DNA from: Dechloromonas sp.
GTDB taxonomy: Bacteria; Pseudomonadota; Gammaproteobacteria; Burkholderiales; Rhodocyclaceae
Assembly: GCA_011391255.1 (NCBI GenBank)
Contig: JAABQV010000004.1
Coordinates: 97,084-161,083 of the forward strand
Direction: 5' to 3'
Length of the DNA stretch: 64,000 nucleotides
Positions 22,989-62,400 of this stretch are shown here, in pieces. The notes beneath the pieces were generated by a model. The model searched no databases and had not been told where the DNA came from. It saw only the letters and a program-made list of their open reading frames with translations. The translations under genes were made by a program, and so were the position numbers. Numbering within the stretch: the first letter of the stretch is position 1; each line of letters opens with the position of its first letter.

Positions 22989-23046
22989 GATGTCATTCCA
23001 GATGATCTAACAAGTTGCTGGATTGCTTTGCTACCTCTTGGTTTGA

Positions 23047-24243: not shown

Positions 24244-24280
24244 TTCTGTGTACTTCACTGATGCTTAAGTTTGTAATTAC

Positions 24281-41756: not shown

Positions 41757-42470
41757 TCAGCGTTGCAGGCCTTTGATCCAGACCGAGTAAAGTTGCTGGG
41801 ACAACTGGCGCATGACCGGCAGCCGCTCAGCGATTTGTGCCTGCATTTGCTCAGGATTCTGAACGCTGGGCAGATCGGCGACCGCCAATGCTTCATCAGC
41901 CCATTGTTCGCACCAGGTGGCGATCATTTCCGGGGTCATTTCAACGTGGCACTGCATACCCAGATGCGGGCCGAGGGCGAACATCTGGTGGCTGCAGTGG
42001 GCGTTGGAAACGAGGTGGGTTGCCCCGGCGGGCAGGCTGAAGGTTTCACCATGCCAGTGAAAAGCCATTGCTGATTTGCCGGAAAACTCACCCAGCCAAT
42101 CGGCGGCGATCTTGCCTTCGGCGCCAACAGCCGCACCCCAGCCAATTTCCTTGACCGGGTTTCTAGTTACTGTGCCACCGAGCGCCTTGCTCATCAGCTG
42201 GCCGCCCAGGCAGTGACCGATAACCGGCACATTCTTCGCCACCGCTTCGCGGATCAGCGCGCACACCGGTGCTATCCAGGGCAGCGGATCGTTGACGCTC
42301 ATCGGCCCGCCCATAAAACAAAGGCCGGAAAAGCTGTCGACCGCAACCGGCACGGCCTCGCCTTCATCGAGGGCAATCAGTTTCCATGGAATCCCTTGCT
42401 GCTCAAGGAATATGGCAAAATAGCCCGGACCTTCAGTGGGGGAGTGGCGAAAAATGGCAACTGGGCGCAT
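41757..42470 (-). CDS. Type 1 glutamine amidotransferase-like protein
   Basis: MGGPMSVND, GHCLGGQL (nucleophile Cys), QCHVE (His-Glu); start MRPVAIF. Confidence 0.88.
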   Translation of the reverse strand: MRPVAIFRHSPTEGPGYFAIFLEQQGIPWKLIALDEGEAVPVAVDSFSGLCFMGGPMSVNDPLPWIAPVCALIREAVAKNVPVIGHCLGGQLMSKALGGTVTRNPVKEIGWGAAVGAEGKIAADWLGEFSGKSAMAFHWHGETFSLPAGATHLVSNAHCSHQMFALGPHLGMQCHVEMTPEMIATWCEQWADEALAVADLPSVQNPEQMQAQIAERLPVMRQLSQQLYSVWIKGLQR

Positions 42471-42492
42471 GCTGGGCAAAGTGGTGGGTGGA

Positions 42493-43128
42493 GTGAGCTT
42501 GCATATTACCTTGCTGGCTTTCCTTTGCTGCTTCCCGGTGCATGCTGCAGCGGTCGATATTGGTCTGGCTGGCATCATGGGTAGTCGGGCGATGCTGATG
42601 ATCAATGGTAGCGAGCCGAAAGCGGTTGCTGTTGGTCAGTCAATTGAGGGCATCCGGCTGATTTCTGTGAGTAGCGATCAGGTGGTTGTCGAGGTGGATG
42701 GAAAAAAACGGCCTTTGCGAATTGGTCAGCATGCGGTTGGGAGTGCCAGCGCTGATGGCTCCGGCAAGGTCATTTTGACTGCCGATAGCCGGGGGCATTT
42801 TGTGACGAATGGTGCGGTTAACGGCGTTTCTGTGCGCTTTTTGGTCGATACCGGAGCGACCATGATCTCCCTTGGTGCCAGCGATGCGAAGCGGATCGGA
42901 ATCGATCCAAGCAAGGGCCAGCGCGGCATGACGAATACGGCCAATGGTCAGGCGCAGGTAAGTATGGTGAAGTTGGATAAGGTGCGCGTTGGCGATGTCA
43001 CGCTGCACAATGTGGATGGATTGGTGCACCAAAATGATCTGCCGGTAGCGCTGCTCGGTATGAGTTTTTTGAACCGCATGGAAATGCAGCGCGATGGCGG
43101 TACGATGACGCTGAAAAAACAATATTAG
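42493..43128 (+). CDS. Clan AA retropepsin-like aspartic protease (TIGR02281-like)
   Basis: FLVDTGATMI, TANG, LLGMSFL; signal peptide; start uncertain. Confidence 0.85.
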   Translation: MSLHITLLAFLCCFPVHAAAVDIGLAGIMGSRAMLMINGSEPKAVAVGQSIEGIRLISVSSDQVVVEVDGKKRPLRIGQHAVGSASADGSGKVILTADSRGHFVTNGAVNGVSVRFLVDTGATMISLGASDAKRIGIDPSKGQRGMTNTANGQAQVSMVKLDKVRVGDVTLHNVDGLVHQNDLPVALLGMSFLNRMEMQRDGGTMTLKKQY

Positions 43129-45453: not shown

Positions 45454-45489
45454 AAAAAGCCCACGGGAGCAATCTTGTGGGTTTTTTTT
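45454..45489 (+). terminator. Intrinsic terminator after the thiolase
   Basis: aaagcccacggga-gcaa-tcttgtgggt followed by a T8 run. Confidence 0.75.
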
Positions 45490-45593
45490 GCACCACTTTG
45501 TTTGAGGGCGCACCGAGTTGGGGCGCAAGGTTGGGCTGTGAATTCATAATTACATGATTTGATTCGCCTTTGGCCTGTGGCATGAAAACTGCT
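45489..45593 (+). promoter_or_regulatory. Sigma54 (-24/-12) promoter with two NtrC-like upstream boxes
   Basis: TGGCATGAAAACTGCT (GG-N10-GC) at 45578-45593; TGCACCA-ctt-TGTTTGA at 45489 and cGCACCg-agt-TGGgGCg at 45509. Confidence 0.6.
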
Positions 45594-45632
45594 GACTTAA
45601 TGCGGAGAGAATCCTCAGCGACGAGTCAAAAT

Positions 45633-47045
45633 ATGAACTTTTATAACGAAATGATCGACGCCGATAACGGTGTCCGCGCTCATTACCGGGCTTACGACGA
45701 ATGGCTCAAGGCCACGCCGGCTGACCGCATCGCACGCAAGCGAGCCGAGGCTGATCTGGCCTTTCACCGAGTTGGTATTACCTTTGCGGTTTATGGTGAA
45801 GAAGCGGGTAAGGAACGCCTGATTCCCTTCGACATCATTCCGCGCATCATCCCCTCGCAGGAATGGAAGTCGATGCAGGCCGGACTGCGCCAGCGGGTCA
45901 AAACGCTGAATTTGTTCCTGCACGATGTTTATCACGATCAGGAAATTCTCAAGGCGGGCAAGATCCCGGCTGAGCAGATTCTTAATAATGCGCAATACCG
46001 TCCGGTGATGAAGGGCGTCGATGTGCCGGGTGGCGTTTATGCGCACATAGCCGGCGTCGATATTGTCCGAGCCGGTGCCGGTGAGTTCTACGTGCTGGAA
46101 GACAACCTGCGCGTTCCCTCCGGCGTTTCCTACATGCTCGAAGACCGCAAGATGATGATGCGCCTCTTCCCCGAGTTGTTTGCCAAGCACAAGGTAGCGC
46201 CGGTTCAGCATTACCCGGACATGCTGCTGGAAAAGCTGCGCGCGGTGGCGCCGAATGGTGTCAATGATCCGACGGTCGTCGTCCTGACCCCCGGCGCCTA
46301 CAATAGCGCTTACTTTGAACACACCTTCCTCGCTCAACAGATGGGCGTCGAATTGGTTGAAGGCCGCGATCTTTTCGTCAAGAACGAAACGGTTTACATG
46401 CGCACGACGCAGGGGCCGCAGCGCGTCGATGTGATTTACCGCCGGATCGATGACGATTACATGGATCCGGAAGTTTTCCGTAGCGATTCGACGCTGGGTG
46501 TGCCTGGCATCCTGCGCGCCTATCAGGCTGGTAATGTGACCCTGGCTAACGCGATTGGCACTGGCGTCGCCGATGACAAGTCGATTTACCCCTATGTGCC
46601 GGAGATGATTCGCTTCTATCTGGGCGAGGAGCCGATTCTCAACAACGTGCCGACCCATATGTGTCGCAAGCCGGAAGAACTCAAATACGTGCTTGCTCAC
46701 CTCTCGGAACTGGTCGTCAAGGAAGTCCATGGCGCTGGCGGTTACGGCATGCTGGTTGGTCCTGCATCGACCAAGGAACAGATCGAGCATTTCCGCAAAC
46801 TGTTGATCGCCAAGCCGGATGGCTATATTGCTCAGCCGACGCTGGCGCTTTCCAATTGCCCGACTTTTGTCGAAGAAGGCATCGCCCCGCGCCACCTCGA
46901 TCTGCGCCCCTTCGTCTTGTCGTCCGGCAAGTGCGTCAATATGGTGCCCGGAGGATTGACCCGCGTCGCGCTCACCGAGGGCTCGCTGGTTGTTAATTCG
47001 TCGCAGGGCGGCGGTACCAAAGACACCTGGATTCTGGAGGACTGA
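45633..47045 (+). CDS. Circularly permuted type 2 ATP-grasp protein
   Basis: VLEDNLRVPSGVSY, VDVIYRRIDD, GVADDK, LVVKEVHGAGGYGM, DLRPF, NSSQGGGTKDTW. Confidence 0.9.
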   Translation: MNFYNEMIDADNGVRAHYRAYDEWLKATPADRIARKRAEADLAFHRVGITFAVYGEEAGKERLIPFDIIPRIIPSQEWKSMQAGLRQRVKTLNLFLHDVYHDQEILKAGKIPAEQILNNAQYRPVMKGVDVPGGVYAHIAGVDIVRAGAGEFYVLEDNLRVPSGVSYMLEDRKMMMRLFPELFAKHKVAPVQHYPDMLLEKLRAVAPNGVNDPTVVVLTPGAYNSAYFEHTFLAQQMGVELVEGRDLFVKNETVYMRTTQGPQRVDVIYRRIDDDYMDPEVFRSDSTLGVPGILRAYQAGNVTLANAIGTGVADDKSIYPYVPEMIRFYLGEEPILNNVPTHMCRKPEELKYVLAHLSELVVKEVHGAGGYGMLVGPASTKEQIEHFRKLLIAKPDGYIAQPTLALSNCPTFVEEGIAPRHLDLRPFVLSSGKCVNMVPGGLTRVALTEGSLVVNSSQGGGTKDTWILED

Positions 47046-47047
47046 TC

Positions 47048-48001
47048 ATGCTATCCCGCACCGCCGACCATCTTTTCTGGATGTCGCGCTACATTGAGCG
47101 CGCTGAAAATCTCGCCCGCCTGCTTGATGTCACCTGGCAAATGTCGCTGGTTCCGCAACCCGTTGAGGTTGCCAACCAGAACTGGAAGGCGATCATCGCC
47201 CTGAATAGCCTCGAAGAGTCGTTTGAAAAGAAGTATTCCACGGTCAACGCCGAAAACGTGCTGCGTTTTATGGTCAGCGACACCGACAACTATGCGTCGA
47301 TTCACAGCTGCCTGCGTTTGGCCCGGGAAAATGCGCACGCAGTGCGCGGCACAATCACCTCGGAAATGTGGGAGACGCTCAACTCAACCTGGCTCGATGC
47401 CCGTGAAAAAACCTTTGAGCAACTCTACGGCGCCGGGATTGCCGATTTTTTCGAGTGGGTTAAGATGCGCTCATCGCTGTCGCGCGGTACGACGCTGGGA
47501 ACCTTGTTGCAGGACGATTCCTATCACTTTATCCGCTTGGGTACCCTGCTCGAGCGTGCTGACAATACCGCCCGTATCCTCGATGTGAAGTATCACGTCC
47601 TTCGCCCGCAAGGTGAAGAAGAGGGGGCGACTGACTTCTACCAGTGGGGCGCCTTGTTGCGTTCGGTTTCCGCCTTCGAGGTCTACCGCAAGGCCTTCCG
47701 CGACGTAATTACACCGGAACGTGTCGCCGAGTTATTAGTACTACGCAGCGACATGCCGCGCTCACTGCATTTCTGCTTGAACGGCGTCATCAAGACGCTC
47801 GACCTGTTGGCGAATGCTCATTCGCATGAAACCCAGCGCCAGGCCGGCATGTTGCACGCGCTGTTGCACTATGCCCGGGTCGAGGACATTCTTGAGCAAG
47901 GCTTGCACGAGTGGCTGACCGACTTTATGGATCGTATTTACTTGCTCGGTAACGGTATCAGCAGGGATTTCCTGATGCCAATGGTCGAAGAAGCTGCCTG
48001 A
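47048..48001 (+). CDS. Alpha-E domain protein
   Basis: MLSRTADHLFWMSRYIERAEN and LERADNTARILD (two ER motifs). Confidence 0.9.
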   Translation: MLSRTADHLFWMSRYIERAENLARLLDVTWQMSLVPQPVEVANQNWKAIIALNSLEESFEKKYSTVNAENVLRFMVSDTDNYASIHSCLRLARENAHAVRGTITSEMWETLNSTWLDAREKTFEQLYGAGIADFFEWVKMRSSLSRGTTLGTLLQDDSYHFIRLGTLLERADNTARILDVKYHVLRPQGEEEGATDFYQWGALLRSVSAFEVYRKAFRDVITPERVAELLVLRSDMPRSLHFCLNGVIKTLDLLANAHSHETQRQAGMLHALLHYARVEDILEQGLHEWLTDFMDRIYLLGNGISRDFLMPMVEEAA

Positions 48002-48019
48002 TATCAACGGAGAATATTT

Positions 48020-51000
48020 GTGTCTATCCATGTTGCACTGAACCACGTTACGCATTACTCCTACGATCGCCTGATCAATCTTGGGCCGCAGGTCGTTCGC
48101 CTGCGTCCTTGCCCGCATTCGCGCACGCGCATTGTTTCCTACTCGCTGAAGATTGGGCCGGAGACGCATTTCATCAACTGGCAGCAGGATCCGCAGTCCA
48201 ACTGGCTGGCTCGTCTGGTGTTTCCAGAGAAAACACGGGATTTCCGTGTCGAGGTTGACCTCGTCGCCGAGATGTCGGTCATTAATCCCTTCGATTTCTT
48301 CCTTGAGCCTTACGCCGAAGAAATTCCCTTTACCTACGAAGCAGCGCAGCGCCACGAGCTCGAGCCATATTTGCAGAAATTGCCGGCCGGTCCGAAATTT
48401 CAGGCTTACGTCGACAGCATTTCGCTGACACCCTTGCGTAGCGTTGACTTCCTTGTTGCGCTGAACGCCCGCGTTCAACAATCGGTCGGCTACACCATTC
48501 GTATGGAACCCGGCGTTCAGACGCCGGAAGAGACCCTGGTCAAGGCCTCCGGCTCCTGCCGCGATTCGGCCTGGTTACTGGTGCAGATTCTGCGTCATAT
48601 CGGCCTCGCCGCGCGCTTTGTTTCCGGCTATTTAATCCAGTTGACCGCAGACGTTAAGTCGCTTGATGGCCCTTCAGGCCCGGAAAAGGATTTCACCGAT
48701 CTGCACGCCTGGTGCGAAGTTTATTTGCCGGGTGCCGGCTGGGTTGGCCTTGATCCGACTTCCGGCCTGTTCGCCGGCGAAGGCCATATTCCGCTCGCTT
48801 GCACCCCCGAGCCGTCATCGGCGGCGCCGGTCAGCGGCGGTATCGACGATTGCGAAACCGAGTTCGAGCATCACATGCAGGTGACGCGAATCTGGGAAGC
48901 GCCGCGGGTTACCAAGCCTTACACCGACGAACAATGGCTGGAAATTGAAGGCCTCGGCCATAAGGTTGACGAACAGTTGCTGGATATGGACGTTCGCCTT
49001 ACGCAAGGTGGCGAACCAACCTTTGTGGCGGTCGACGACCCCGATGGCGCCGAATGGAATACTGAGGCGATGGGCCCGACCAAGCGGCTTTACGCAGCCG
49101 AAGTCTTCCATCGTTTGCGTGAAAAATATGCCCCGCATGGCCTCATGCACTTTGGCCAGGGCAAGTGGTATCCCGGCGAGCAACTCCCGCGTTGGAGCTT
49201 GAATTGCTACTGGCGCAAGGATGCACAGCCGATCTGGAACGATCCCAGTCTTTACGCCAACGAAAAACTCGACTACGGCGTAACCAGCGCGCATTCCTCA
49301 GAATTTATGAGGCGGGTTGCTGAAAAGCTCAAGCTCGACCCGCAATACGTCTTCCCGGCTTTTGAAGATATCTATTACTACATGTGGCGCGAGCGCCGCC
49401 TGCCGGGTAATGTCGATCCCTTTGATTCGCGCGTTGATGATGAACTGGAGCGTGAGCGCCTGATGCGCGTATTCACGCAGGGAATGACCTACACCGTCGG
49501 CCATGTCTTCCCGGTGATGAAAAATGCTGCCGGCCAGTGGCAAACCGGGCCCTGGTTCCTGCGCTCCGAGCGCTGCTATCTGTTCCCCGGCGATTCCGCC
49601 ATGGGCTATCGTTTGCCGCTTGACTCGCAGCCATGGGCTTCGAAGGCTGATTATCCCTACATGACGCCGCCTGACCCGGCGCAACCGGTAGCCGCATTGC
49701 GCAGCCATGCCGAGATTCGTCGTCAGTTCGAGCGTGCCTCAACGCTGGCTGCAGGTTATGGCGAATCTACTGCCGGCCAAGTTGGTTCGCTTGCGGCAGG
49801 GCCGGGCGTCAGTGCCAGTGGTGATGGTTCGGGTGATGGCAATGGCCAGCGCCCAGACCTGCGCCCCTCAGCCAAACAATCCGCTGGCTGGATTACGCGC
49901 ATGGCGATGTCGGCCGAGCCGCGCGAAGGCAAGCTCTACATTTTCATGCCGCCGACCAATACGCTGGACGACTATCTTGAATTGGTTACCGCCGTCGAGT
50001 TAACCGCCGAAGAGATGCGTCTGCCGGTCATCCTCGAAGGTTACGAGCCGCCGTCAGATCCGCGCCTGACCAGCTTCCGCGTCACACCCGATCCGGGCGT
50101 TATCGAAGTCAATATTCACCCGGCGCATAGCTGGGATAAATTGGTCGAGCAAACCACCCATCTTTACGATGCCGCCCATATTTCGCGCCTGACGACTGAA
50201 AAATTCATGGTCGATGGCCGCCACACCGGCACCGGTGGCGGAAATCACTTTGTCCTTGGTGGTGCCACGCCCGCTGATTCACCGTTCCTCCGCCGTCCGG
50301 ATTTGCTGCGTAGCCTGGTCGCTTACTGGCACAATCATCCCAGCCTCTCCTACCTGTTCTCCGGCCTGTTCATCGGCCCGACCAGTCAGGCGCCGCGGGT
50401 TGATGAAGCGCGCAACGACAGCCTCTACGAGCTGGAAATCGCCTTCAGCCAGATTCCGCCGGTCGGTGACTACATTCCGCCCTGGCTGGTTGATCGCGTG
50501 TTGCGCAACTTGCTGACCGACGTTACCGGCAACACCCACCGCTCCGAGTTCTGTATCGACAAGCTCTTTTCACCGGATGGCCCGACCGGTCGTCTAGGTC
50601 TACTTGAATTGCGTGCTTTCGAAATGCCGCCGCATGCACGCATGTCGCTGACGCAGCAATTGCTGCTGCGCGCGATGATTGCCCGTTTCTGGGAAGAGCC
50701 CTACAACCCGCCGCGTCTGGCGCGCTGGGGAACCGAGTTGCACGACCGCTTCATGCTGCCACATTTTGTTGAGCAGGATTTCCGCGACGTCATGGAAGAA
50801 ATGCAGCTTGCCGGCTTCCCGATGCAGGTCGAATGGTTTGCCCCGCACTTCGAGTTCCGCTTCCCGAAATATGGTGACTTCACCGTCAAGGGGATCGAGT
50901 TCGAGTTGCGTCATGCGCTGGAGCCATGGCACGTCATGGGTGAGGAAGGTTCGCCCGGTGGCACGGTGCGTTACGTCGATTCGTCACTTGAGCGCGTTCA

Positions 51001-51400
51001 GGTCAAGATCAAGGGCATGGCGCCTGATCGTTACGTCCTGACCTGTAATGGCGTTGCCGTACCGCTGCAAAACACCGGCATCAACGGTGAGTTTGTTGCC
51101 GGTGTCCGCTATCGCGCCTGGCAGCCGCCGTCTTGCCTGCATCCGACGATAGGTGTCGATGCGCCTTTGGTCTTCGATATTGTCGATACCTGGATGCAAC
51201 GTTCCCTTGGGGGTTGTCAATACCATGTGGCGCATCCCGGCGGGCGCAGTTTTGATACCTGCCCGGTTAACGCATTTGAGGCAGAGAGCCGTCGTCTGGC
51301 GCGCTTCTTCCGCTTTGGCCACACGCCGGGAACAATGCAGGTGGCAGCGCCGGAGTTCAGCGCCGAACACCCGTTTACGCTAGACTTGCGCCGTTTTTAA
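48020..51400 (+). CDS. Transglutaminase-like domain plus DUF2126 putative amidoligase fusion
   Basis: GSCRDSAW/LHAW/LDPT catalytic triad; DPGVIEVN, HTGTGGGNH, QAPRVDE, GNTHRSEFCIDK, LELRAFEMPP. Confidence 0.88.
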   Translation: MSIHVALNHVTHYSYDRLINLGPQVVRLRPCPHSRTRIVSYSLKIGPETHFINWQQDPQSNWLARLVFPEKTRDFRVEVDLVAEMSVINPFDFFLEPYAEEIPFTYEAAQRHELEPYLQKLPAGPKFQAYVDSISLTPLRSVDFLVALNARVQQSVGYTIRMEPGVQTPEETLVKASGSCRDSAWLLVQILRHIGLAARFVSGYLIQLTADVKSLDGPSGPEKDFTDLHAWCEVYLPGAGWVGLDPTSGLFAGEGHIPLACTPEPSSAAPVSGGIDDCETEFEHHMQVTRIWEAPRVTKPYTDEQWLEIEGLGHKVDEQLLDMDVRLTQGGEPTFVAVDDPDGAEWNTEAMGPTKRLYAAEVFHRLREKYAPHGLMHFGQGKWYPGEQLPRWSLNCYWRKDAQPIWNDPSLYANEKLDYGVTSAHSSEFMRRVAEKLKLDPQYVFPAFEDIYYYMWRERRLPGNVDPFDSRVDDELERERLMRVFTQGMTYTVGHVFPVMKNAAGQWQTGPWFLRSERCYLFPGDSAMGYRLPLDSQPWASKADYPYMTPPDPAQPVAALRSHAEIRRQFERASTLAAGYGESTAGQVGSLAAGPGVSASGDGSGDGNGQRPDLRPSAKQSAGWITRMAMSAEPREGKLYIFMPPTNTLDDYLELVTAVELTAEEMRLPVILEGYEPPSDPRLTSFRVTPDPGVIEVNIHPAHSWDKLVEQTTHLYDAAHISRLTTEKFMVDGRHTGTGGGNHFVLGGATPADSPFLRRPDLLRSLVAYWHNHPSLSYLFSGLFIGPTSQAPRVDEARNDSLYELEIAFSQIPPVGDYIPPWLVDRVLRNLLTDVTGNTHRSEFCIDKLFSPDGPTGRLGLLELRAFEMPPHARMSLTQQLLLRAMIARFWEEPYNPPRLARWGTELHDRFMLPHFVEQDFRDVMEEMQLAGFPMQVEWFAPHFEFRFPKYGDFTVKGIEFELRHALEPWHVMGEEGSPGGTVRYVDSSLERVQVKIKGMAPDRYVLTCNGVAVPLQNTGINGEFVAGVRYRAWQPPSCLHPTIGVDAPLVFDIVDTWMQRSLGGCQYHVAHPGGRSFDTCPVNAFEAESRRLARFFRFGHTPGTMQVAAPEFSAEHPFTLDLRRF

Positions 51401-51478
51401 CCGGCAATTTGCAAGCGTGGCTTGCGCCCCGCAATGTCGGGGTGTGAGCCTGCGCTGCAAAACGTAAACTCAGGCGTC

Positions 51479-53998
51479 ATGGCTCGCACACTCCTCGCGA
51501 TTTACCCGCAAAGTCCTCGGCGTTTTGACGAAATGTTGACGTCGGACGGGGAGGTGCGTCCGCACTGGCGCAAGTTCTTCGAGCATCTTGATCAGGTCGA
51601 TCCCGAAGAAATGCGGCGACGGCTGGAGTTTGTCGACCGGCGCATTCAGGAAAACGGTGTTACTTACAACGTCTACGCCGATCCGAGTGGTGCCGACCGG
51701 CCATGGGCGCTTGATCCGCTGCCGCTGATCATTCCGCCGGAAGAGTGGGCCAAGGTCTCGGCAGCGGTTGCCCAGCGCGCCAAAGTCCTGAATGCCATGC
51801 TCGCCGATCTCTACGGTGAGCAAAAGCTGCTCGCTGACGGACTCTTGCCACCCTCGCTGGTCTTCGGTCAGCACGGGTTTTTATGGCCCTGTCACGGCAT
51901 CAAGCCGATTGGCGGTACCTGGCTACACAATTACGCCGTCGATCTGGCGCGTTCGCCCGATGGCAAATGGTGGGTCATCGCCGACCGCACGCAGGCGCCT
52001 TCCGGTGCCGGTTATGCACTGGAAAACCGGTTGGTTGTCTCGCAGGTTTTTCCGGACATGTTCCGTGACCTCAATGTTCAGCATCTCGCCGATTTTTTCC
52101 ACGATCAGCAGGACGGCCTGGCGGCACTGGCGCCAGTCGAAGGTGATGAACAGCCGCATATCGTTCTGCTGACGCCTGGGCCCTACAACGAAACCTATTT
52201 CGAGCATGCTTACCTCTCGCGCTACCTTGGCTTTCCGCTGGTAGAAGGTCAGGATTTAACGGTACGCGGTGACACCCTCTACCTGAAAACCCTGCACGGC
52301 CTGGAGCGGGTGCATGTCATCCTGCGTCGTCAGGATGATGATTATTGCGATCCGCTCGAACTGCGCGGTGCCTCGGCGCTCGGCATTCCCGGTCTGTTGA
52401 ATGTCATTCGCGCCGGGCGCGTCACTGTTGCCAATGCACTGGGTAGCGGCATGCTGTCCTCGGGTGCGATCATGGGCTTCCTGCCGGCGATTTGCCGAAA
52501 ATTGTTTGGCGAAGAATTGCTGATGCCGGCAGTTGGTACCTGGTGGTGCGGCGAGAAGCCGGCGCTGGAGTATGTCAAAAAGAACTTTGACGATCTGGTC
52601 ATAAAACCGTCCTATCCCACGCAGAGAATGGATCCGGTCTTCGGCTTCGAATTGAAGGGGGCGGCGCGCGTCGATTTGCTACAGCGCATTGAGGCACGTC
52701 CACATGCCTACGTCGCGCAGGAAATGGTCAATCTCTCGCAAGGCCCGACCTGGAGCCGTTCGCACGAGCGCCGTTTGCTGGCCCGGCCGGTTGGCTTGCG
52801 CGCCTATGCCGTCGCGACGAGCAGCGGCTACTCGGTTATGCCTGGCGGGTTGGCGCGTGTTGCCACCGGTGCAGGCACTCGAATTATCTCGATGCAGCGC
52901 GGCGGAGCCTCTAAAGATGCCTGGGTGCTGACCGATGGGCCGGTTAGCGCGTTCACCATGCTCAAGCCGTCATTGGGTGTGCGTGATCTGGTCCGTGAAG
53001 GTGCCAATCTGAGCTCGCGGGTCGTTGAAAACCTGTTCTGGCTGGGGCGTTATTCTGAACGCTTCGATGACAGTGCCCGCTTGCTGCGGGTGACGCTTGG
53101 CCGGCTGGTTGAAGCCGGCGGCGGACGAACCCCGGTCGTCGCCACCATCCTTGAGTTGGGTAAGCAACTTGGTGTCCTGCCAAAGCCGGAAGAAGACACG
53201 CCGGTTGTCGCAGGCTCAGACCATATTTTGCTTGAAGCCATTTACGATCCTAAGCAGCCCGGTAGTTTGGCCAGCAATATCCGTAGCCTGTTGTGGTCAG
53301 CCACCCATGTCCGCGAGCGCCTCTCGCTCGATCACTGGCATTCGCTGAACCGTCTGCAACGCGAGCAGCAGGCTGCGCTCAAGGCGCACCCGACGCTGAC
53401 CGAGGCGATTGCCTTCCTTGACCGTGTGCTCGGGGTCTCTTCCTCGTTGACCGGATTCGCGATGGACAACATGACGCGCGACGACGGTTGGCGCTTCCTG
53501 ATCATCGGCCGCAATCTTGAGCGCCTTTCTTTCCTCGCCAAAACCATCTCGCAGTTTGTTCGCATGCCCAAAACCAATGCGCCGGGCAATCTTGAGTGGT
53601 TGCTCGAGCTATCGGACTCAATCATCACCTACCGTTCGCGCTATTCCCGGTTGCCCGAGTTGCTGCCGGTGCTTGACCTGCTGGTGTTTGACGACAGCAA
53701 CCCGCACGGCGTCGTCTTTCAGGCCAGCATGCTGAGCCGTTACCTGGAGCGCATGGCGCGCGATCTGGACGACTACAGTGGCAGCAATCTGCCCGATGTG
53801 CTGAGCCGTCTGCGTGCTTTTGACCTTGCCTCACTAGAGGACATTCCCCTCGGAGAGTATGTCAACTGTCCGTCCTGCCTTGAATTGGCAGACCTGCTCA
53901 TTGAACTTGATCGTTCGGCGGTCAAGATCTCAGAGTGGCTGGGGATGCGCTACTTTACACATGTCGGCGACGTCAGCCGGCAGACCATGGCGCTGTGA
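51479..53998 (+). CDS. Circularly permuted ATP-grasp plus alpha-E fusion protein
   Basis: DRTQAPSGAGYALENR, VANALGSG, PGGLARV, SMQRGGASKD, then LFWLGRYSER and IGRNLER. Confidence 0.88.
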   Translation: MARTLLAIYPQSPRRFDEMLTSDGEVRPHWRKFFEHLDQVDPEEMRRRLEFVDRRIQENGVTYNVYADPSGADRPWALDPLPLIIPPEEWAKVSAAVAQRAKVLNAMLADLYGEQKLLADGLLPPSLVFGQHGFLWPCHGIKPIGGTWLHNYAVDLARSPDGKWWVIADRTQAPSGAGYALENRLVVSQVFPDMFRDLNVQHLADFFHDQQDGLAALAPVEGDEQPHIVLLTPGPYNETYFEHAYLSRYLGFPLVEGQDLTVRGDTLYLKTLHGLERVHVILRRQDDDYCDPLELRGASALGIPGLLNVIRAGRVTVANALGSGMLSSGAIMGFLPAICRKLFGEELLMPAVGTWWCGEKPALEYVKKNFDDLVIKPSYPTQRMDPVFGFELKGAARVDLLQRIEARPHAYVAQEMVNLSQGPTWSRSHERRLLARPVGLRAYAVATSSGYSVMPGGLARVATGAGTRIISMQRGGASKDAWVLTDGPVSAFTMLKPSLGVRDLVREGANLSSRVVENLFWLGRYSERFDDSARLLRVTLGRLVEAGGGRTPVVATILELGKQLGVLPKPEEDTPVVAGSDHILLEAIYDPKQPGSLASNIRSLLWSATHVRERLSLDHWHSLNRLQREQQAALKAHPTLTEAIAFLDRVLGVSSSLTGFAMDNMTRDDGWRFLIIGRNLERLSFLAKTISQFVRMPKTNAPGNLEWLLELSDSIITYRSRYSRLPELLPVLDLLVFDDSNPHGVVFQASMLSRYLERMARDLDDYSGSNLPDVLSRLRAFDLASLEDIPLGEYVNCPSCLELADLLIELDRSAVKISEWLGMRYFTHVGDVSRQTMAL

Positions 53999-54972
53999 TG
54001 ATGGAAAAAGAGCCCGTCCGTTACCACGTGGTACACCAGACAACCTACGATTACGGCGGCAATGTCTCGTTATCGCAGCAACAACTGCATCTGTCGCCGC
54101 GCATCCTCGCCTGGCAGCGCATCGTCGAACAAAATATCGAGGTAACGCCAACACCCACATGGCGCCGCGATGGCGACGATGCCTTCGGCAACCCGGTGAC
54201 CTGGATCGCTTTCCATGTGCCGCACGACAGTTTGCGGATCAGTTCAGTAATGTCCGTAGAAGTCATCCCGCATCTCCCGGAGAATCTTGAAACCTCGATG
54301 CCCTGGGAAGAGTTGCGCGACCGCCTGGCCTACACTGCGGTGCCCCCCGAGCCGGAAGATCTCGACGCGACGCGCTTCCTTTTTGAGAGCGCCCATGTCC
54401 GCATCAAACACGAACTGGCCGATTACGCCGCCGATTGCTTTCCGCCAGAGACGCCGGTACTGGTGGGTGCCGAAGCCTTGATGGCGAAAATTTTCAAGGA
54501 ATTCAAGTTCGATCCGGAGGCGACCACGGTATCAACGCCGGTCATGGAAGTCCTCGAAAAGAAGCGTGGCGTTTGTCAGGACTTCGCACATCTAATGATC
54601 GCCTGTTTGCGCGCCCTTGGCCTGTCTGCCCGCTACGTCAGCGGCTACCTGCTGACCCGCCCGCCACCGGGCAAGCCGCGTCTGATCGGCGCTGATGCAT
54701 CGCATGCCTGGGTATCAGTTTACGCGCCGGGCTTTGGCGACAACTGGGTCGACTTCGACCCGACCAATAATCTGCTGCCCAATACCGAACATATCACGAT
54801 CGCCGTCGGCCGCGATTTCGGCGATATATCTCCGCTACGCGGCATAATTCTCGGCGGCGGCGGTGCCGAACCGGAAGTTGAGGTCACCGTGACGCCGCTC
54901 GACGAGGAAGAGTTACCGGAAGGACTCGAAGAACGCTTGTCCACACTGCCGGAGGAGGCAGAGAAGCCCTGA
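53998..54972 (+). CDS. Transglutaminase-family protein
   Basis: HQTTYDY N-terminus; GVCQDFAH, SHAW, DFDPTN triad. Confidence 0.9.
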   Translation: MMEKEPVRYHVVHQTTYDYGGNVSLSQQQLHLSPRILAWQRIVEQNIEVTPTPTWRRDGDDAFGNPVTWIAFHVPHDSLRISSVMSVEVIPHLPENLETSMPWEELRDRLAYTAVPPEPEDLDATRFLFESAHVRIKHELADYAADCFPPETPVLVGAEALMAKIFKEFKFDPEATTVSTPVMEVLEKKRGVCQDFAHLMIACLRALGLSARYVSGYLLTRPPPGKPRLIGADASHAWVSVYAPGFGDNWVDFDPTNNLLPNTEHITIAVGRDFGDISPLRGIILGGGGAEPEVEVTVTPLDEEELPEGLEERLSTLPEEAEKP

Positions 54973-56204
54973 TGCCAACGGTAGCCATCATCGGCGCCGG
55001 CCCGGCCGGGTTGATGGCGGCGGAACAACTTGGCGTCGCCCAAGAGTACTTTCTGCGGGGTGCAGTCAACGGCGTAAATGTCGATATTTTTGATGCCATG
55101 CCCTCGGTTGGTCGCAAGTTTTTGATCGCTGGCAAAGGCGGCATGAACATCACCCACAGTGAGCCACTGCCGGCTTTCATTGCCCGCTATGGCCAACGTG
55201 CTGAAAAAATCGCTCCGTTACTTGCAGCGTTCGGGCCACAAGCACTGCGCGAGTGGATCGCCGGGCTGGGGATTGAAACCTTTGTTGGCACCTCTGGCCG
55301 CGTCTTCCCCACTGAAATGAAGGCAGCCCCCTTGCTGCGTGCCTGGCTGCATCGCTTACGTGGCGCCGGGGTGCGCTTTCATGTCCGCCATCGCTGGCTC
55401 GGCTGGCAGGCTGATGGCAGCCTTCGCTTCGCGACGCCGGAAGGAGAGATAGCGGTCAATGCCGATATCGTCATACTCGCGCTCGGTGGCGGCAGCTGGA
55501 AAAAGCTCGGATCGGACGGTGCCTGGGTGCCAATTTTGGTGGAGCGCGGAATTCCCGTCCTACCGCTAAAGCCTGCCAACTGTGGTTTCGATGTGGCGTG
55601 GAGTGCCTATTTTCGTGAGCGTTTTGCCGGGCAGCCGATCAAGTCGGTGGTTGCCAGCGTTGGCGATCAAAGTCAGCAGGGCGAATTCAATATTACTGAA
55701 AACGGGATTGAAGGTGGCTTGATCTACGCTTTGTCGGCGCCGCTGCGCGATGCGTTAGAACGCGACGGCGAGGCAACGCTGACCCTTGATCTGGCGCCAG
55801 GGCGCAGCTTTGAGCGTTTGATTGCCGATCTTTCCAAACCGCAGGGGCGCGATTCTTTGTTCAATCACCTGCGCCGGCGGGTCGGGATTGAAGGCGTTAA
55901 GGCGGCATTGTTACGAGAATTCAGCCCAAATTCGGCGTTGACCGCGACAGCCTCATTGGCGGCAGCAATCAAGGCCTTGGCTGTGCCGGTTATCGCAACG
56001 CGGCCGCTTGATGAAGCGATTAGCAGCGCTGGCGGCGTGGCTTTTGAAGCTTTGGATGAAAATCTGATGTTGAAGCAAATGCCCGGCATTTTTTGTGCCG
56101 GCGAGATGCTCGATTGGGAAGCGCCCACCGGCGGCTACCTGCTCACCGCCTGTTTCGCCAGCGGTTATGTGGCCGGGCAGGGTGTCCGAGATTGGTTGGC
56201 GTAG
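54972..56204 (+). CDS. HI0933/TIGR03862-family flavoprotein
   Basis: GAGPAG, GRKFLIAGKGGMNITH, GTSGRVFP, AISSAGGV, GEMLDWEAPTGGYLL. Confidence 0.88.
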   Translation: MPTVAIIGAGPAGLMAAEQLGVAQEYFLRGAVNGVNVDIFDAMPSVGRKFLIAGKGGMNITHSEPLPAFIARYGQRAEKIAPLLAAFGPQALREWIAGLGIETFVGTSGRVFPTEMKAAPLLRAWLHRLRGAGVRFHVRHRWLGWQADGSLRFATPEGEIAVNADIVILALGGGSWKKLGSDGAWVPILVERGIPVLPLKPANCGFDVAWSAYFRERFAGQPIKSVVASVGDQSQQGEFNITENGIEGGLIYALSAPLRDALERDGEATLTLDLAPGRSFERLIADLSKPQGRDSLFNHLRRRVGIEGVKAALLREFSPNSALTATASLAAAIKALAVPVIATRPLDEAISSAGGVAFEALDENLMLKQMPGIFCAGEMLDWEAPTGGYLLTACFASGYVAGQGVRDWLA

Positions 56205-56214: not shown

Positions 56215-56254
56215 TCCCCTCGCCCCACTTTTGGGGAGAGGGTTAGGGAGAGGG
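56215..56254. repeat. G/C-rich palindromic REP-like unit (tcccctcgcccc...ggggagagggttagggagaggg)
   Basis: Pyrimidine-rich half pairs with the purine-rich half; intergenic, between convergent genes. Confidence 0.55.
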
Positions 56255-56261: not shown

Positions 56262-56330
56262 AAACCGTGGTCTGTCCCCGGTTTTCCCCGGTTTTCCCGG
56301 TTTTCCGCGGTTTTCTCGGTTGCCGGTTTT
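56262..56330. repeat. aaaccgtggtctgtccccggtttt unit followed by a (c)ccggtttt tandem array
   Basis: About six copies of an 8-10 bp unit from 56276 to 56330; aaaccg/cggttt stem. Confidence 0.65.
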
Positions 56331-56335: not shown

Positions 56336-59300
56336 TTACTCCCCAATCAGACCGGGGTGGGCGCTGAGCACGTCGCGCAGGTGTTCGAGCGCACCCGGAA
56401 AATCAAAGTTGTCCATACGTCTTTCAAATTCGGCAAAGTCGGTATCGAGCGCGGCGCTGAGCAGGTCGTGGTGGCCTCGCAGCAGATCGCCGGCGCTCAT
56501 GTCATCAACTTCGAGCAGGGGGATCAGGCGAGCAATAATTTTACGTGCCGCAACCAAATCAGCTGCCACCGGGGGCAGGCTGGCATTGCTGGCGAGGATC
56601 GCTAGAAGGGCGTTAATTAGGCTGCAAAGGGTTTCTTCGAGGTGACTGAGTAGCGGCGTGGTTTGCTCTGGAGACTGGTTTTCCCGGAGCGCTGCTTCAA
56701 GTTCGGCGGCCGCACTGCGCAGGCTATTGAGGCCAAGCGAGCCGGCTGCGCCCTTGAGCGAGTGGGCGTGGCGCGTGGCGGTCGGATTGTCACCGGCGGT
56801 TATCGTGGTGCGCAGCAGCGTGGATGTGTCGCGATGATGAACAATAAACTTGATGAGTAAATCGAGATATTTATCCGGCTTGCCGCGCATGGTCGCCATG
56901 CCGGCCTTGGTATCGATGCCCGGGATTTCGTGGATTTTGGTTATCAGAGCCTCGATCGCTGCCGGGTCGGATATGCTGCCTTGGGGTGCCAGAGGGGCTG
57001 AGCTCAAGGGCTGGCTTTCCGGATTGGCAGGCAGGTTAGCCAGCCGAGTGGCGTAGAGGATGTCGGGCTTGGGGCCGGTGCCGGCAAGGATTTCAATCGC
57101 TACCGTCTGATTGATCCGGTCATCTTCAACCAGCAATAATTTTGCCTGACTGCGCGTGCGCCTGATTTCTGCCTCTAAATCGGCGTTGACCGCAACATTC
57201 GCCTGTTGCGGGGCATCAGCGGCGATATCCAGACAGGCGGTGATCCAGAACGTGCTGCCCTTGCCCGGCGTACTGATCACACCGGTTTCGCCGCCCATCA
57301 GCTGGGCAAGCTGGCGGGATATGGCAAGACCGAGGCCGGTGCCACCAAAACGGCGGGTGGTTGAGTTATCGGCTTGCTCAAAACTGCTGAAAAGGCGGGG
57401 AATCATCCCGGCCTCAATACCAATGCCGGTATCTTCAATCTCAAAACGCAGGATCACTTGCTGGCCGCGCGATTCAGTAACGCGGGCGCGCAGCAGAACA
57501 TGACCCTTCTCGGTGAATTTGACCGCATTGGAGAGGTAGTTGAGCAGAATCTGCTGCAGTCGTACCGGGTCTCCTCTGACCGCGCCCGGCAAGGCCGGGT
57601 CGATATCGGCAAGGAGAGCGAGGCCTTTGTCGCGGGTTTTGAATTCGAGCATGCCGAGGACATCACTGAGGACGCGGCCAGGGGCGAAATCGACTTTCTC
57701 AAGTTGCAGCTTTTCGGCCTCAATCTTTGATATGTCGAGAATGTCGTTGATAACAGCCAGCAGATGCTTTGCCGAATCAGAGACTTGAGCGAGCCGATCC
57801 TGTTGCTGGCGCTCGGTGGCGTCGCGCTGCATCAGGTGGGTGATGCCGATGACGGCGTTGAGCGGCGTGCGAATTTCGTGGCTCATGTTTGAAAGAAAGG
57901 CGCTTTTGGCGCGACTGGCCTGCTCGGCCAACTCTTTGGCCAGCCGCAATTCGCTGGTGCGTTCATCAACCATGAACTCAAGGCGGCGCTGATAGTCGGC
58001 CAGTTCGGCCTCCGTTTTACGTTTTTGGGTGACATCGGCAACAAAGGAGAAAATGTGCTGCTCGCCATCAAAATCAAGCAACGCCGCTGAAATCTCGACG
58101 TTGTGTGGCTTTCCGGCACGGTCAAGCCAGATCGCATCGTGGCTGACGACGGCTTTGGATTCGTTCAGCCTGGACAGCCAGGCTTGGCGCACCTCAGGAT
58201 CCGTCCAGATGCCGGCTTCGATCGAGGTGCGGCCAATCAATTCTTCCTCGCTCCAGCCAAAGTCGCGCTCAAATTTGTTGTTGATATCAACAACGTGGCC
58301 ATCGCTGCTACGGGAGATGACGGCAGCCAGCGGGCTGGCGTCAAAAGCAATTTGAAAGCGCTGACGCAGGGTGCGAGCCGAATCCTCGGCAGCGAGCAGC
58401 GATTGGTATCGGCGCAAGCCATGCGTCTGGAAGATGAAGCCAAGCAAGCCGGCGGCGGCGAGGAGCAGGCCGATGGTGACGGCGATGATTAGCCATGACG
58501 CGGTCTGCCAGGCAGCGAGTGCTTCGCTGCGTGAAATTTTGGCGACCAAAGCCCATTCTGATTCAGGGACTTTGCTCAGGTAAGCGAGCACTGGCGTGCC
58601 GTCGATGTCGATGCCTTGAACATGCCCCAGGCGATCACCAAAAATCGCCATGACGGCCGGTGACATGGCATCGCTGGCAGGGATGCGGGTATTGAGGGCA
58701 GAACCGATTTGCCGTCGGCGATCATTGACCAGTTGCGCATGCTCACCGTCACGGCGGACTAGCCAGAATTCGGCGCTGGTGCTCGGTAAAGGCCATTTTT
58801 TCAGTGCCGGGTAGAGAAAAGTGTCGAGATTGGCCTGAAGAATGACTGAGCCCACTTGCCGCGCTGTCTCGCCCTGAGTTGTGAAAAGCGGGGCAATGAC
58901 GTCGATATGAACATAGCCGCCATTGGGCGACAGATGAACGTCGCTGAGTTTGGGTGGCCTGCTCTGCACCGGGGTTTTGAGTAGTTCAAGAATGTGCTCG
59001 GAGAGAGCGGTTGAACGCCTGCTGGCGCTGGCGAGGATTTCCCCCTCCATGTTGGTGACGATCACGTCGTGGTAACGATAGTTTTGCGCGATGCTGCGCA
59101 ACCGCGCCTCAACCGCATCGCTGATCCGGCCTTGACTGCCTTTGCGCATCCGTTCAACTTCCTGAATCAGGGGCGCGCTCTCGCTGAGCACCTTGGCGTC
59201 AGCGTAGCGCTCGCCGCGCCATTGGGCGATCTGGTCGTTGAGCAGAGTGTTGAAGGCTTCGAGATGCTGCTCAGATTTGCTCAGGGCGCGTGCCTTTTCG

Positions 59301-59404
59301 CTTTGATACAGCCAGGTTCCGCCGGCAGCAATCAGCAGAAAAACGAGCGCGAAGGCGGGCAGAATCCAGGATGGCGAGGTGCTGGTGGTGTTGTCCGGTT
59401 TCAT
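56336..59404 (-). CDS. Membrane-bound hybrid histidine kinase (periplasmic sensor, PAS, HisKA, HATPase, truncated REC, Hpt)
   Basis: [37 protein letters not shown]; receiver domain lacks its core. Confidence 0.88.
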
Positions 59405-62400
59405 GCTTGCTCGCTGGTCTTTACTGTTGCTTCAAGTACGGTCAACGCCGATTCAAAGTCGAAATTATTGAGGTTGGTTTTGAAGTTTTTTTGCTGCTCG
59501 CCAAAGAGCTGGGCGAAGAATGCCGGATGCTCGTCCAGCGTTTTGATCGCCGCGAAATCATCATTACCGAGTTGCTTGCGCATCGTCTCAATGATTGCTC
59601 TGGCGGCTTTTTTGTCGCTTTCCGGCACTGCCGGCGATTCGCTCTTGCCCGGATTTAATCCGGCAAGGGCTTGCTGCAGGCTACTGTAATGGCGCGCCGT
59701 TTCGTCGAGTAGCGTTTTGATTTCGGCCAGCGGCCGGCTTTCCTTGATCGCGCTTTCAAGGCGCGCGGCGGATTGTTGGAGATCGGTGGCGCCCAGCGAT
59801 CCGGAGGCGCCTTTGATCGAATGGGCAAGGCGGCGGGCTTCGTTGTGGTCGTCAGTCTCAAGAAGTTCGGTAATGCGTTTGAAATCGCCGTTGTGGCTTT
59901 CGGCAAAGCCGTTGAGCAGGCGGCGATAGGTGGCGACCCGCCCAAGTACCGAGCGCAAGCCAAGATCGGCATTGAGGCCGGGGATCTGGTGCAGTTCGGC
60001 AGCATCGCTTGGCTCGGGGGCTTTCGGCTGGCTGGTTGCTTGCTTCGGCGCCGGCTGGTCGCGTTTGGGCAACCATTGCAGGAGGGCTGAGAACAGCACT
60101 TTTGGATCGACCGGCTTGGCAATGTGATCATTCATGCCGGCTTCGATGCAGGCGTTGCGGTCTTCGTCAAATGCATTGGCGGTCATTGCCAGAATCGGTA
60201 TATCTGCCCAGCCGGGCAATTGGCGAATGTTGCGGGTTGCCTCGAGACCATCCATTAGCGGCATCTGCATATCCATCAAGACCAGATCGAAGTGCTGACC
60301 GGTGGCGATGGCCAGGGCTTCGGCGCCGTCATGCGCGACGACCACACGCAAGCCGGCACATTCAAGCAGATCGCGGGCGACTTCCACGTTGGTCGGGTTG
60401 TCTTCGGCGAGCAGAATGAAGGCGCCACCATGAACTGCCGCCACTTCGTATTCCCGATGGTCATGCGGCCCAGGAGGGGGACTGGCCTCTGAGCCAGGTA
60501 GCGCCGGATCGAGACGGGCAGTGAACCAGAAGGTGCTGCCGCTGCCGACTTCGCTGCTGACGCCAATGGCGCCACCCATTGCTTCGGCAAGACGCAGGCT
60601 GATTGCCAGACCGAGACCGGTACCGCCAAAGCGCCGGGTGGTCGAGGTGTCGGCCTGCTCAAACGGGTTGAAGAGCCGTGCCTGAACTTGCGGGCTGATA
60701 CCGATGCCGGTGTCGCGTACCTCGCAGCGCACATAAAGCCCGGAGGGGCTGGTGTGCAGCAGTCGCGCACTCATCGTGATACGCCCCTGTTCGGTGAATT
60801 TGACCGCGTTGGAGAGGAAGTTGAGCAGAATTTGTTGCAGGCGCATGGCGTCACCACGCATGACGTTCGGCAGGGCCGGATCGATCTCGATGCTGATCGG
60901 TAAGCTTTTGGCGGCGGCCTTGACGAGGATCAATTCGCGCGCATTACCGAGAATGTCTGCCGGATTGAGATTGGTGCTCTCGAGTACCAGTTTGCCGGCT
61001 TCTATTTTTGAGAAGTCGAGAATTTCGTTGAGCACGGCGAGCAGGTGTTGAGCAGCATTGCCAACCTTGCCGAGACGTTCGCGCTGGGTAGGTGTTTCAG
61101 CGTCGCGCCGCGCCAGATGGCTGAGACCCATGATGGCATTGAGCGGGGTGCGAATCTCATGGCTCATGTTGGCGAGAAAGGAGCTCTTTGCCCGGCTGGC
61201 TGATTCTGCCTCTTCCTTGGCAATGCTGAGTTGGGCGGTGCGTTCTTCGACCAGGGTTTCCAGATGCTGTTGCATGCTTTCCTGGGCGACCCGTTGCTCG
61301 GTGATGTCCTGAATGGTGCCGACCATTTCCAGAATTTGTCCCTGGTCATTGATTTTTAACTTGCCACTGCCGCGCAGCCAGCGGGTGCGTCCATCGACGG
61401 GGCGGATGATACGGTACTCATTGCTGAATGGCTGTTGCTTGCCGAGAACTTCATCCGCCAGATAGATTCGCATGCGTACCTGGTCTTCGGGATGAATCAG
61501 TGCCTGCCAGCCATCGACATCGCGCTGGTAGTCAGCATTGATCCCGAAAATCTCATCGAGTAGCGCTGAGCTTTCCCAGGCGTTGCTGTCAGGTATGAAA
61601 CGATAGTGACCCAAGCGCGCAATCGACTGCGCCTCGCGTAATTCGGCTTCACTTTCGGCGAGTTTGTGCAGCGCCTGCAGGCGCCCGATGCCGGCAGCGA
61701 CTTCTCCGGTCAGTTCTTCAAGCAGGGAGATTTCCGGCTCGTCGAAAGCATCAGTTAATTCACTGTAAATATTGATCGCACCAAAAATGTTGCCGGCAAT
61801 TCGCAGGGGCATCGCGATCGATGAACGGTAGCCGCAGGCGATGGCGTCTTCACGTGATCGGACAAAATTGGGGTCGTTAAGGATATCGCGACAGATGACC
61901 GGGATGCCGGTACGGATCGCTTTACCGGTTGGCCCCTGACCAAAGTCGTTATCGGCCCAGGAGACCTTGATCGCATCAAGGTAGCCTGGGTCGAATCCTG
62001 ATTCGGCAATCGGCCTTACCGAGCGATCGGCATTTTGTCCGGCTTGGGCAACCCAGGTCATGCGGTAGCCACCAACCTCGGTGATGAGGATGGCGATCTC
62101 GGTCAAGAAACTGGCTTCGCTAGCGTTTCGGCTCATCGCCTGCGCAACGCCGCTCATTAATGTCAGAGCCCGATTCTGGCGGGTGATTTGCTCGCGTTCG
62201 AGGCGCTTGCGGGTAATGTCGGTGAGAATGCCAACACTTAAGCGAGGTGCCCCGCCAGGGGTTTTGTCGACAAGACAGGCATTGGCTTCATACCAAAGCC
62301 AGCGGCCATCGCTTGCTTGGACGCGGTATTCCTGAGAGCCTGGTTCAATACCTTTGTCTAATTTCTCAAAAGCTCCGGTGACGCTGGCAGCGTCATCGGG

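Follow-up and report, generated by a model that had tools for sequence, protein, structure and literature searches.

An ATP-grasp/Alpha-E/transglutaminase/DUF2126 gene cluster of Dechloromonas sp.: domain architecture, modular gene order and a sigma-54 type promoter motif

Genes and products of the cluster

Six co-oriented open reading frames (ORFs), g1 to g6, occupy positions 45633-56204 on the + strand of a 64-kb stretch of Dechloromonas sp. DNA (contig JAABQV010000004.1, positions 97,084 to 161,083), which was analysed as a whole and is referred to here as the window. The first five encode ATP-grasp (PF14403/PF04174), Alpha-E (PF04168), transglutaminase-like and DUF2126 domains, and the cluster is a standard, intact member of a widespread ATP-grasp/Alpha-E/transglutaminase/DUF2126 system. 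A first-pass annotation of the sequence had read this five-gene composition and order at 45633-54972, together with a flavoprotein gene overlapping the last stop codon; the former was borne out by a Pfam domain scan and the latter by the single base that the g6 ATG shares with the g5 stop (TGATG overlap). The genes and their products, with lengths in amino acids (aa), are as follows:

45633-47045, + strand: g1, stand-alone circularly permuted ATP-grasp ligase, 470 aa (Pfam CP_ATPgrasp_2, E 7.5e-168)
47048-48001, + strand: g2, stand-alone Alpha-E protein, 317 aa (Pfam Alpha-E, E 2e-98)
48020-51400, + strand: g3, fusion of 1126 aa (Pfam Bact_transglu_N, Transglut_core and DUF2126; E = 0, 1346 bits), transglutaminase-like over residues 1-275 and DUF2126 putative amidoligase over residues 276-1126
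51479-53998, + strand: g4, ATP-grasp and Alpha-E fusion, 839 aa (Pfam CP_ATPgrasp_2, E 2e-153, and Alpha-E, E 1e-64)
53998-54972, + strand: g5, stand-alone transglutaminase-like thiol enzyme, 324 aa (Pfam Bact_transglu_N and Transglut_core, E 3e-23)
54972-56204, + strand: g6, HI0933-like flavoprotein (NCBIfam family TIGR03862)

The start codon of g1 is backed by orthologous ORFs. That of g4 is most likely the ATG at 51479 rather than 51422, as the start codon is conserved in orthologues, which share the resulting length of 839 aa, and g5 most likely begins at the ATG at 53998, which overlaps the g4 stop as TGATG, the longest-ORF start at 53935 being probably wrong. With these corrected starts the intergenic gaps from g1 to g6 are 2, 18, 78, -1 and -1 nucleotides (nt), and the last overlap predicts that g6 is translationally coupled to g5. 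Searches of NCBIfam returned no named family for g1-g5, an Rfam scan of the cluster with its 5' leader and spacers gave no hit, and PADLOC gave no defence-system match. The closest homologues are found in Dechloromonas, Azonexus and other Azonexaceae, with identities up to 91-97%, and the DNA sequencing runs that contain the window sequence are sediment and groundwater metagenomes only; the host is an uncultured sediment bacterium of the Azonexaceae (Rhodocyclales).

We looked for degenerate catalytic residues on full alignments and found the conserved positions intact instead, in line with the domain reading of the first-pass annotation, which counted three amide-ligase domains and two thiol enzymes of the transglutaminase fold. 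For the ATP-grasp domains, 58 positions kept in at least 95% of 107 family members were taken as the conserved set; g1 retains all 58, and g4 retains 57, with one A to S change. Over its full length g1 matches PDB 3N6X (E 9e-224), a structural-genomics entry named 'putative glutathionylspermidine synthase' whose activity is undemonstrated. The Cys-His-Asp triads claimed for g3 and g5 are likewise complete by alignment. In g3 the triad consists of C180 (GSCRDSAW), H229 (DLHAW) and D245 (GLDPT), and in g5 the motifs GVCQDFAHL, SHAWV and DFDPT coincide with the triad residues of PDB 3ISR (E 9e-13), a transglutaminase-like putative cysteine protease from Cytophaga hutchinsonii, again with activity undemonstrated, which resembles both g5 and the N-terminal domain of g3.

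The AlphaFold2 model of g3 (pLDDT 85.4, pTM 0.84) places its N-terminal 290 residues on 3ISR, with a Foldseek E of 5e-14 and a TM-score of 0.73. The DUF2126 part gave weak, consistent Foldseek matches to glutamine synthetases, YbdK and GmaS (E 0.02-0.05, probability 0.9-0.97). An internal duplication of DUF2126, residues 290-578 against 625-1126, was tested for and none was found. Across the g3 family the triad Asp is invariant and the His nearly so, and 5 of 28 diverse representatives have A, H, P or D in place of the catalytic Cys (C180 column); the fused transglutaminase domain may therefore be non-catalytic and serve in binding only in some lineages.

The g2 Alpha-E protein was modelled, with database homologues in the alignment, as an all-helical structure of 16 helices (AlphaFold2 pLDDT 86.5). 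PDB searches matched no solved structure to Alpha-E or DUF2126; for Alpha-E there was no match by sequence, and none by fold with the model (best E 0.04, TM-score 0.24). Alpha-E is internally duplicated: its two halves are homologous (hhalign probability 98.9%, E 4e-17), and both bear the motif (R/G)R(Y/L)xERAxNxAR. The invariant residues W11, R14, R18, R24, R100 and R170, mostly arginines, are present in g2 and in the g4 domain, as are E17 and E169, which are conserved in at least 90% of sequences, and the C-terminus is neither conserved in the alignment nor ordered in the model. Fusion to an ATP-grasp domain in g4, invariant Arg and Glu residues in two repeats and a C-terminus that is not conserved make Alpha-E look like an enzyme subunit or specificity domain. 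The same features leave without support the suggestion of the first-pass annotation that Alpha-E is the acceptor of a peptide tag.

That annotation had also called the operon doubled. Duplicate copies are indeed present, but they are old paralogues: within the window the two ATP-grasp domains are 34% identical, the Alpha-E domains 24% and the transglutaminase cores 39%. Identities of 24-39% led us to reject a recent tandem duplication as the source of the doubling, which the sequences place as ancient paralogy.

Gene order across loci and the place of Anbu

The g3 family comprises 3,135 clusters at 50% identity (E < 1e-30), most of which are full-length transglutaminase-DUF2126 fusions. A scan of species-representative genomes yielded 80 loci that span Beta-, Gamma- and Alphaproteobacteria, Verrucomicrobiota, Planctomycetes and Acidobacteriota, with g3 identities of 59-82%; between proteobacteria and Verrucomicrobia, Planctomycetes and Acidobacteria, g3 is 59-62% identical. 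Locus ORFs were labelled by BLAST against the domains of the window, and the counts given here refer to 81 loci anchored on a DUF2126 fusion. Of the 72 loci with enough downstream sequence to be evaluated, 66 have the ATP-grasp/Alpha-E fusion as the next gene after the DUF2126 fusion, and in 65 of these 66 a transglutaminase comes after it. The genes g3-g4-g5 (transglutaminase-DUF2126, ATP-grasp/Alpha-E fusion and transglutaminase), hereafter the trio, form a near-invariant unit under strong selection.

The genes g1 and g2, hereafter the pair, are a separable module that is mobile relative to the trio. Among the 48 loci with full flanks, 25 have the pair no more than 10 kb from the trio. In 9 loci, including Marinobacter, Burkholderiales, Vicinamibacterales and a metagenome-assembled genome of Verrucomicrobia, the pair immediately precedes the trio in the same orientation; elsewhere it is divergent in some loci and downstream of the trio in others, and the distance between the modules is 2.5-7 kb in Comamonadaceae and 7.5 kb in Dechloromonas denitrificans. 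Some loci (L008, L042, L045, L078 and L025) hold a third small transglutaminase. The flavoprotein gene directly follows the trio only in the Azonexaceae loci L001-L004, and in L011 a copy is found 1.9 kb downstream of the trio on the opposite strand. A census of flanking ORFs of at least 100 aa in the 81 loci gave no further conserved partner gene; the flanks reflect lineage-specific synteny (ComEC, RidA, LOG, azurin, radical SAM, ParC and histidine kinases). The five-gene 'doubled' layout is ordinary, not special, and the local features of the window copy are the lack of a third transglutaminase, a pair that abuts the trio and a coupled flavoprotein gene.

The domain set is the one for which Iyer, Abhiman, Burroughs and Aravind reportedly predicted in 2009 a peptide-ligation or tagging system, with stress on a peptidase of the NTN-hydrolase type; such a peptidase is missing from the window and from 79 of the 81 trio loci. 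In M. tuberculosis, Rv2566-Rv2567-Rv2569c is presumably the same trio and Rv2411c-Rv2410c-Rv2409c the pair plus a transglutaminase, in separate loci. Rv2411c and Rv2567 have been expressed as candidate ATP-binding ligases and made no GABA-trehalose (GABA, gamma-aminobutyric acid; bioRxiv 10.64898/2026.04.15.718621), and a published account describes Rv2569c as a 'serine protease' that is secreted (PMC11081392), which sits poorly with a thiol enzyme of the cytoplasm.

Relatives of the pair are found in operons of ATP-grasp, Alpha-E, transglutaminase and the proteasome homologue Anbu (beta-like, PF00227), as in Pseudomonas putida (PP_2688-2685), Yersinia bercovieri, Aeromonas (L085) and Acinetobacter (L086). 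Their ATP-grasp and Alpha-E genes are of the same family as g1 and g2, whereas the window has neither the small transglutaminase after Alpha-E nor Anbu and has the DUF2126 trio instead, after 18 nt. Two Anbu proteins, from the Aeromonas and Acinetobacter operons, served as tblastn queries against the window and 86 loci. In agreement with the first-pass annotation, neither these searches nor a Pfam scan of ORFs in the size range of Anbu revealed an Anbu or proteasome homologue in the 64-kb window. The further proposal that the transglutaminases stand in for the missing Anbu is not supported: just 2 of the 81 loci (L044 and L051) have Anbu in the neighbourhood of the trio, and Sinorhizobium meliloti pSymB carries an ATP-grasp/Alpha-E/transglutaminase operon without Anbu. 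Valas and Bourne likewise noted COG2308 in genomes without Anbu (PMC3235984). The g1 protein is 69% identical to the Aeromonas ATP-grasp protein of the Anbu-ending operon, which is within the range of trio-linked copies, and so the pair appears to be one family with or without a downstream Anbu gene, the Anbu-less state being, by these comparisons, the norm for the trio architecture. Identity is 55% between g1 and the Acinetobacter ATP-grasp protein and 43% between g2 and the Aeromonas Alpha-E protein.

The two trio-linked Anbu genes (L044, 17676-18386; L051, 6386-7123) are convergent with the ATP-grasp/Alpha-E pair and not downstream of it, and in L044 a methylene-tetrahydromethanopterin dehydrogenase gene lies between trio and Anbu. 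On S. meliloti pSymB and the Burkholderia sp. YI23 plasmid, tRNA-modification genes of the MnmC/MnmD type lie near ATP-grasp/Alpha-E (L083, 2011-2727; L084, 7244-7978), which may be a coincidence; the S. meliloti genes also have a flavin adenine dinucleotide (FAD) oxidoreductase and a DEAD-box helicase as neighbours.

Upstream region and probable sigma-54 type regulation

The region upstream of g1 and the largest spacer of the cluster contain the following elements:

45460-45489, + strand: intrinsic terminator of the upstream bktB-like thiolase gene (hairpin of -19.7 kcal/mol, z = -4.7, followed by eight U)
45490-45494 and 45510-45514, + strand (region 45489-45514): two GCACC half-sites 20 nt apart, partly conserved in L002 and L004
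45578-45593, + strand: sigma-54 type -24/-12 motif TGGCAT-N5-CTGCT (TGGCATGAAAACTGCT), about 40 nt before the g1 ATG
51401-51478, + strand: stem-loop in the g3-g4 spacer (-39.9 kcal/mol, z = -4.3, without a U tract)

The motif at 45578-45593 is the sole match to TGGCAY-N5-YTGCW in the window, and the orthologous regions of L002 and L004 retain its GG and GC elements but differ in the spacer. Across the loci, GG-N10-GC sites in the 150 nt upstream of each start were scored against TGGCAC-N5-TTGCA. Sites scoring at least 9/11 were present for 41 of 79 trio starts and for 12 of 33 pair starts, where the loci themselves give an expectation of 1.6%, and most lie 30-90 nt before the start codon. They also share base preferences that were not part of the score, a G after TGGCAC and a C before TTGC. 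Modules that are separated have a motif each, as upstream of g3 in L001; in the window, no such motif is found between g2 and g3.

These motifs before both modules, across phyla, agree with published data on NtrC/sigma-54 and nitrogen limitation. In a Burkholderia cenocepacia ntrC mutant the genes I35_5080-83 are down 6- to 9-fold, and their expression under nitrogen limitation is sigma-54 dependent (PMC5491218). In strain H111 these genes (BCAM1233-1236) encode an ATP-grasp protein, Alpha-E, a transglutaminase and a 'large transglutaminase-domain protein', their homology to the window cluster being read from product names and from Burkholderia loci; in Burkholderia, but not in the window, one more small transglutaminase stands between Alpha-E and the large fusion, an arrangement also seen in L036 and L008. 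The Anbu operon shares the link to nitrogen limitation via NtrC/sigma-54, PP_2686-2688 of P. putida being induced 11- to 37-fold through NtrB/NtrC when nitrogen is limiting (PMC7801951). The association with nitrogen starvation that the first-pass annotation had put forward is thus corroborated by the conserved motif and by expression in relatives.

We propose that one sigma-54 promoter at 45578-45593 would drive all six genes, after the terminator of the preceding gene, and that an NtrC-type activator would switch the cluster on when nitrogen is scarce. The thiolase terminator is predicted to isolate the cluster from upstream transcription, and, judged from the spacing of the genes and this flanking terminator, the cluster is most likely co-transcribed. 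The two GCACC half-sites may be a site for an enhancer-binding protein. In the 5' leader (45604-45632) an invariant block, CTCAGCGACGAGTC, is present in three Azonexaceae loci (the window, L002 and L004), and the leader has no clear Shine-Dalgarno sequence. The hairpin in the g3-g4 spacer may be an element of mRNA processing, stability or attenuation. Related Rhodocyclales also have hairpins in this spacer, with different sequences and two of them terminator-like; as a feature of the whole family the hairpin was rejected, the median z being -0.9 and z < -2 being reached in 13 of 53 spacers.

The promoter data and the gene order also bear on whether pair and trio act together at all. The two modules could work independently on different substrates and merely be adjacent, as would suit their separation in D. 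denitrificans, the fact that some loci, among them those of Pseudomonas and Serratia, have no pair within 10 kb of the trio, and the separate sigma-54 motif of each module where they are apart. However, the two are found together far above chance, in several orientations and across phyla (the 25 of 48 loci above), they have a promoter type in common, Burkholderia regulates them jointly, and in the window they are separated by 18 nt without a promoter motif between them, so that we regard the absence of any joint function as improbable.

Proposed function and the surrounding sequence

Taking domains, gene order and regulation together, we tentatively favour a system that would make a gamma-glutamyl-type amide compound at the expense of ATP and break it with thiol enzymes under nitrogen limitation, controlled from sigma-54 promoters, a reading that we hold to be a good possibility and that draws on analogy. 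Each ATP-grasp domain and its Alpha-E partner, free or fused, would constitute a two-part ATP-dependent carboxylate-amine ligase, and the g4 fusion argues for a working complex of ATP-grasp and Alpha-E in a 1:1 ratio. DUF2126 would be the third ligase, with a glutamine-synthetase/YbdK-like fold, and the amide bonds formed by the ligases would be hydrolysed or transferred by the two Cys-His-Asp enzymes of the transglutaminase fold. The product would be a small peptide or amine conjugate of the gamma-glutamyl type, synthesised and degraded in the course of nitrogen scavenging or recycling.

The analogy is with the glutathione/glutathionylspermidine and gamma-glutamyl amine pathways (GshA or YbdK, GshB, GspSA, PuuA/PuuD and GmaS), which employ the same set of folds: a ligase like glutamine synthetase or GCS, an ATP-grasp enzyme and a Cys-His thiol amidase. 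In GspSA a ligase and an amidase are fused, as in g3, and the Puu and Gma pathways are nitrogen-regulated. The likeness does not extend to sequence-level kinship beyond the ATP-grasp annotation; the thiol enzyme has a transglutaminase fold in the window but a CHAP or GATase fold in those pathways, and Alpha-E has no counterpart in them. A small conjugate is preferred over a protein tag because of this shared fold set and because there is no gene for a small tag, nor room for one: the spacing of the cluster is too tight, and no extra neighbour recurs among flanking ORFs of at least 100 aa.

Several observations weigh against such a small conjugate and its regulation as proposed. To our knowledge no product of the system is known in any organism. 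The likeness of DUF2126 to glutamine synthetase is weak (Foldseek E about 0.02), and a profile search with the g3 alignment gave no sequence-level PDB match for DUF2126, hitting the transglutaminase part only. The window motif scores only 8/11, as its -12 element is CTGCT, and upstream of the cluster there is no clear NtrC palindrome, the GCACC half-sites mismatching the palindromic NtrC consensus. Transglutaminase-fold enzymes often act on proteins, and the pair is linked to Anbu in some genomes, both of which favour peptide or protein substrates. The ATP-grasp protein of Yersinia releases phosphate from ATP, and neither glutamate nor glutamine gives any stimulation (PMC6376114).

Protein or peptide substrates are central to the tagging scheme of the first-pass annotation, reportedly predicted by Iyer et al. 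in 2009, in which the ligases attach Glu/Gln-type tags to Alpha-E or other proteins and the transglutaminases remove or transfer them. Such a scheme would resemble pupylation by PafA and Dop and would be of use in protein turnover under nitrogen starvation. PafA and Dop are ligases of the glutamine synthetase/GCS type, although both are absent among the listed Foldseek matches of the g3 model; these matches do include TgpA, TG2 and PeiP, consistent with the common action of transglutaminase folds on protein glutamine and isopeptide bonds. Regulation by nitrogen starvation recalls how the Pup-proteasome system serves to recycle amino acids, the nearly invariant E17 and E169 of Alpha-E could be of a kind with such a scheme, and in other genomes the pair stands in operons that end in Anbu (PMC6376114, PMC5666114). 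Nevertheless, the cluster has no tag gene, Anbu is near the trio in 2 of 81 loci only, and Alpha-E, with its fusion to an enzyme in g4 and its unconserved terminus, fits better as a subunit than as a substrate. Pull-downs gave no complexes and the peptidase activity of Anbu went undetected (PMC6376114), and the 59-62% identity of g3 across phyla agrees no less well with a universal small substrate than with a protein one. We therefore consider tagging in this form less likely than a small conjugate but a serious rival to it, and the same holds, with somewhat more doubt, for a general pupylation-like protein-modification pathway of Gram-negatives under NtrC/sigma-54 control, in which the ligases would tag proteins, the transglutaminases would edit the tags and Alpha-E would select the substrate.

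Three ligase domains could also act in sequence on a non-ribosomal peptide polymer or secondary metabolite, such as a poly-amino-acid reserve or a surface polymer, with the transglutaminases in maturation or cross-linking; ATP-grasp ligases do make cyanophycin, poly-glutamate tails and peptide antibiotics. Yet genes of the transporter, export, precursor or tailoring kind are missing from the cluster, whose neighbours vary by lineage, Pfam matched no signal-peptide or membrane domain among the five products of g1-g5, and induction under nitrogen limitation argues against a nitrogen-rich polymer, all of which makes this the kind of product that we least expect.

The neighbourhood itself and its nitrogen regulation in two species are already known, the gene neighbourhood having been described bioinformatically since 2008-2009 (PMC3235984; Iyer 2009 via PMC6376114, PMC5666114). 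What appears to go beyond the accounts cited here is the quantified modular map, the conservation of the sigma-54 motif across phyla, and the internal duplication and orphan fold of Alpha-E, some of which may possibly be contained already in Iyer 2009. The family is among the larger 'known unknowns' of bacterial genomes and belongs to the nitrogen-starvation regulon in both species tested. The modular map (an invariant trio, a mobile pair and an optional third transglutaminase or Anbu), the sigma-54 promoter and the Alpha-E partner domain provide starting points for experimenters. The window copy itself adds nothing unusual.

Upstream of the cluster are arginine-biosynthesis genes, a NUDIX gene and the bktB-like thiolase gene. 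On the - strand at 41757-42605, 3 kb upstream, lies a class-I glutamine amidotransferase/peptidase C26-like gene of the gamma-glutamyl hydrolase family, whose position is kept in L002. Downstream, at 56336-63267 on the - strand, two hybrid sensor kinases of 1022 and 1288 aa (PAS/GAF/CBS, HisKA, HATPase, receiver and Hpt domains) are convergent on the cluster; sensor kinases also follow the flavoprotein gene in D. denitrificans, but in L002 chemotaxis genes take that place. Between the convergent flavoprotein and histidine-kinase genes lie about 4-5 tandem copies of CCCGGTTTT at 56275-56321, with a period of 9-10, preceded by a GC-rich hairpin without a U tract at about 56216-56242.

Farther away, the segment at 22000-26000 has a GC content of about 0.50, against 0.55-0.59 elsewhere, and several short ORFs without an assignment, and may have been acquired. 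In a region of sugar-nucleotide genes, 839-1563 and 5322-5906 hold a nucleotidyltransferase substrate-binding/HepT-like ORF with a small upstream partner and a putative endonuclease of the Uma2 family, which are likely toxin-antitoxin or mobile-type genes.

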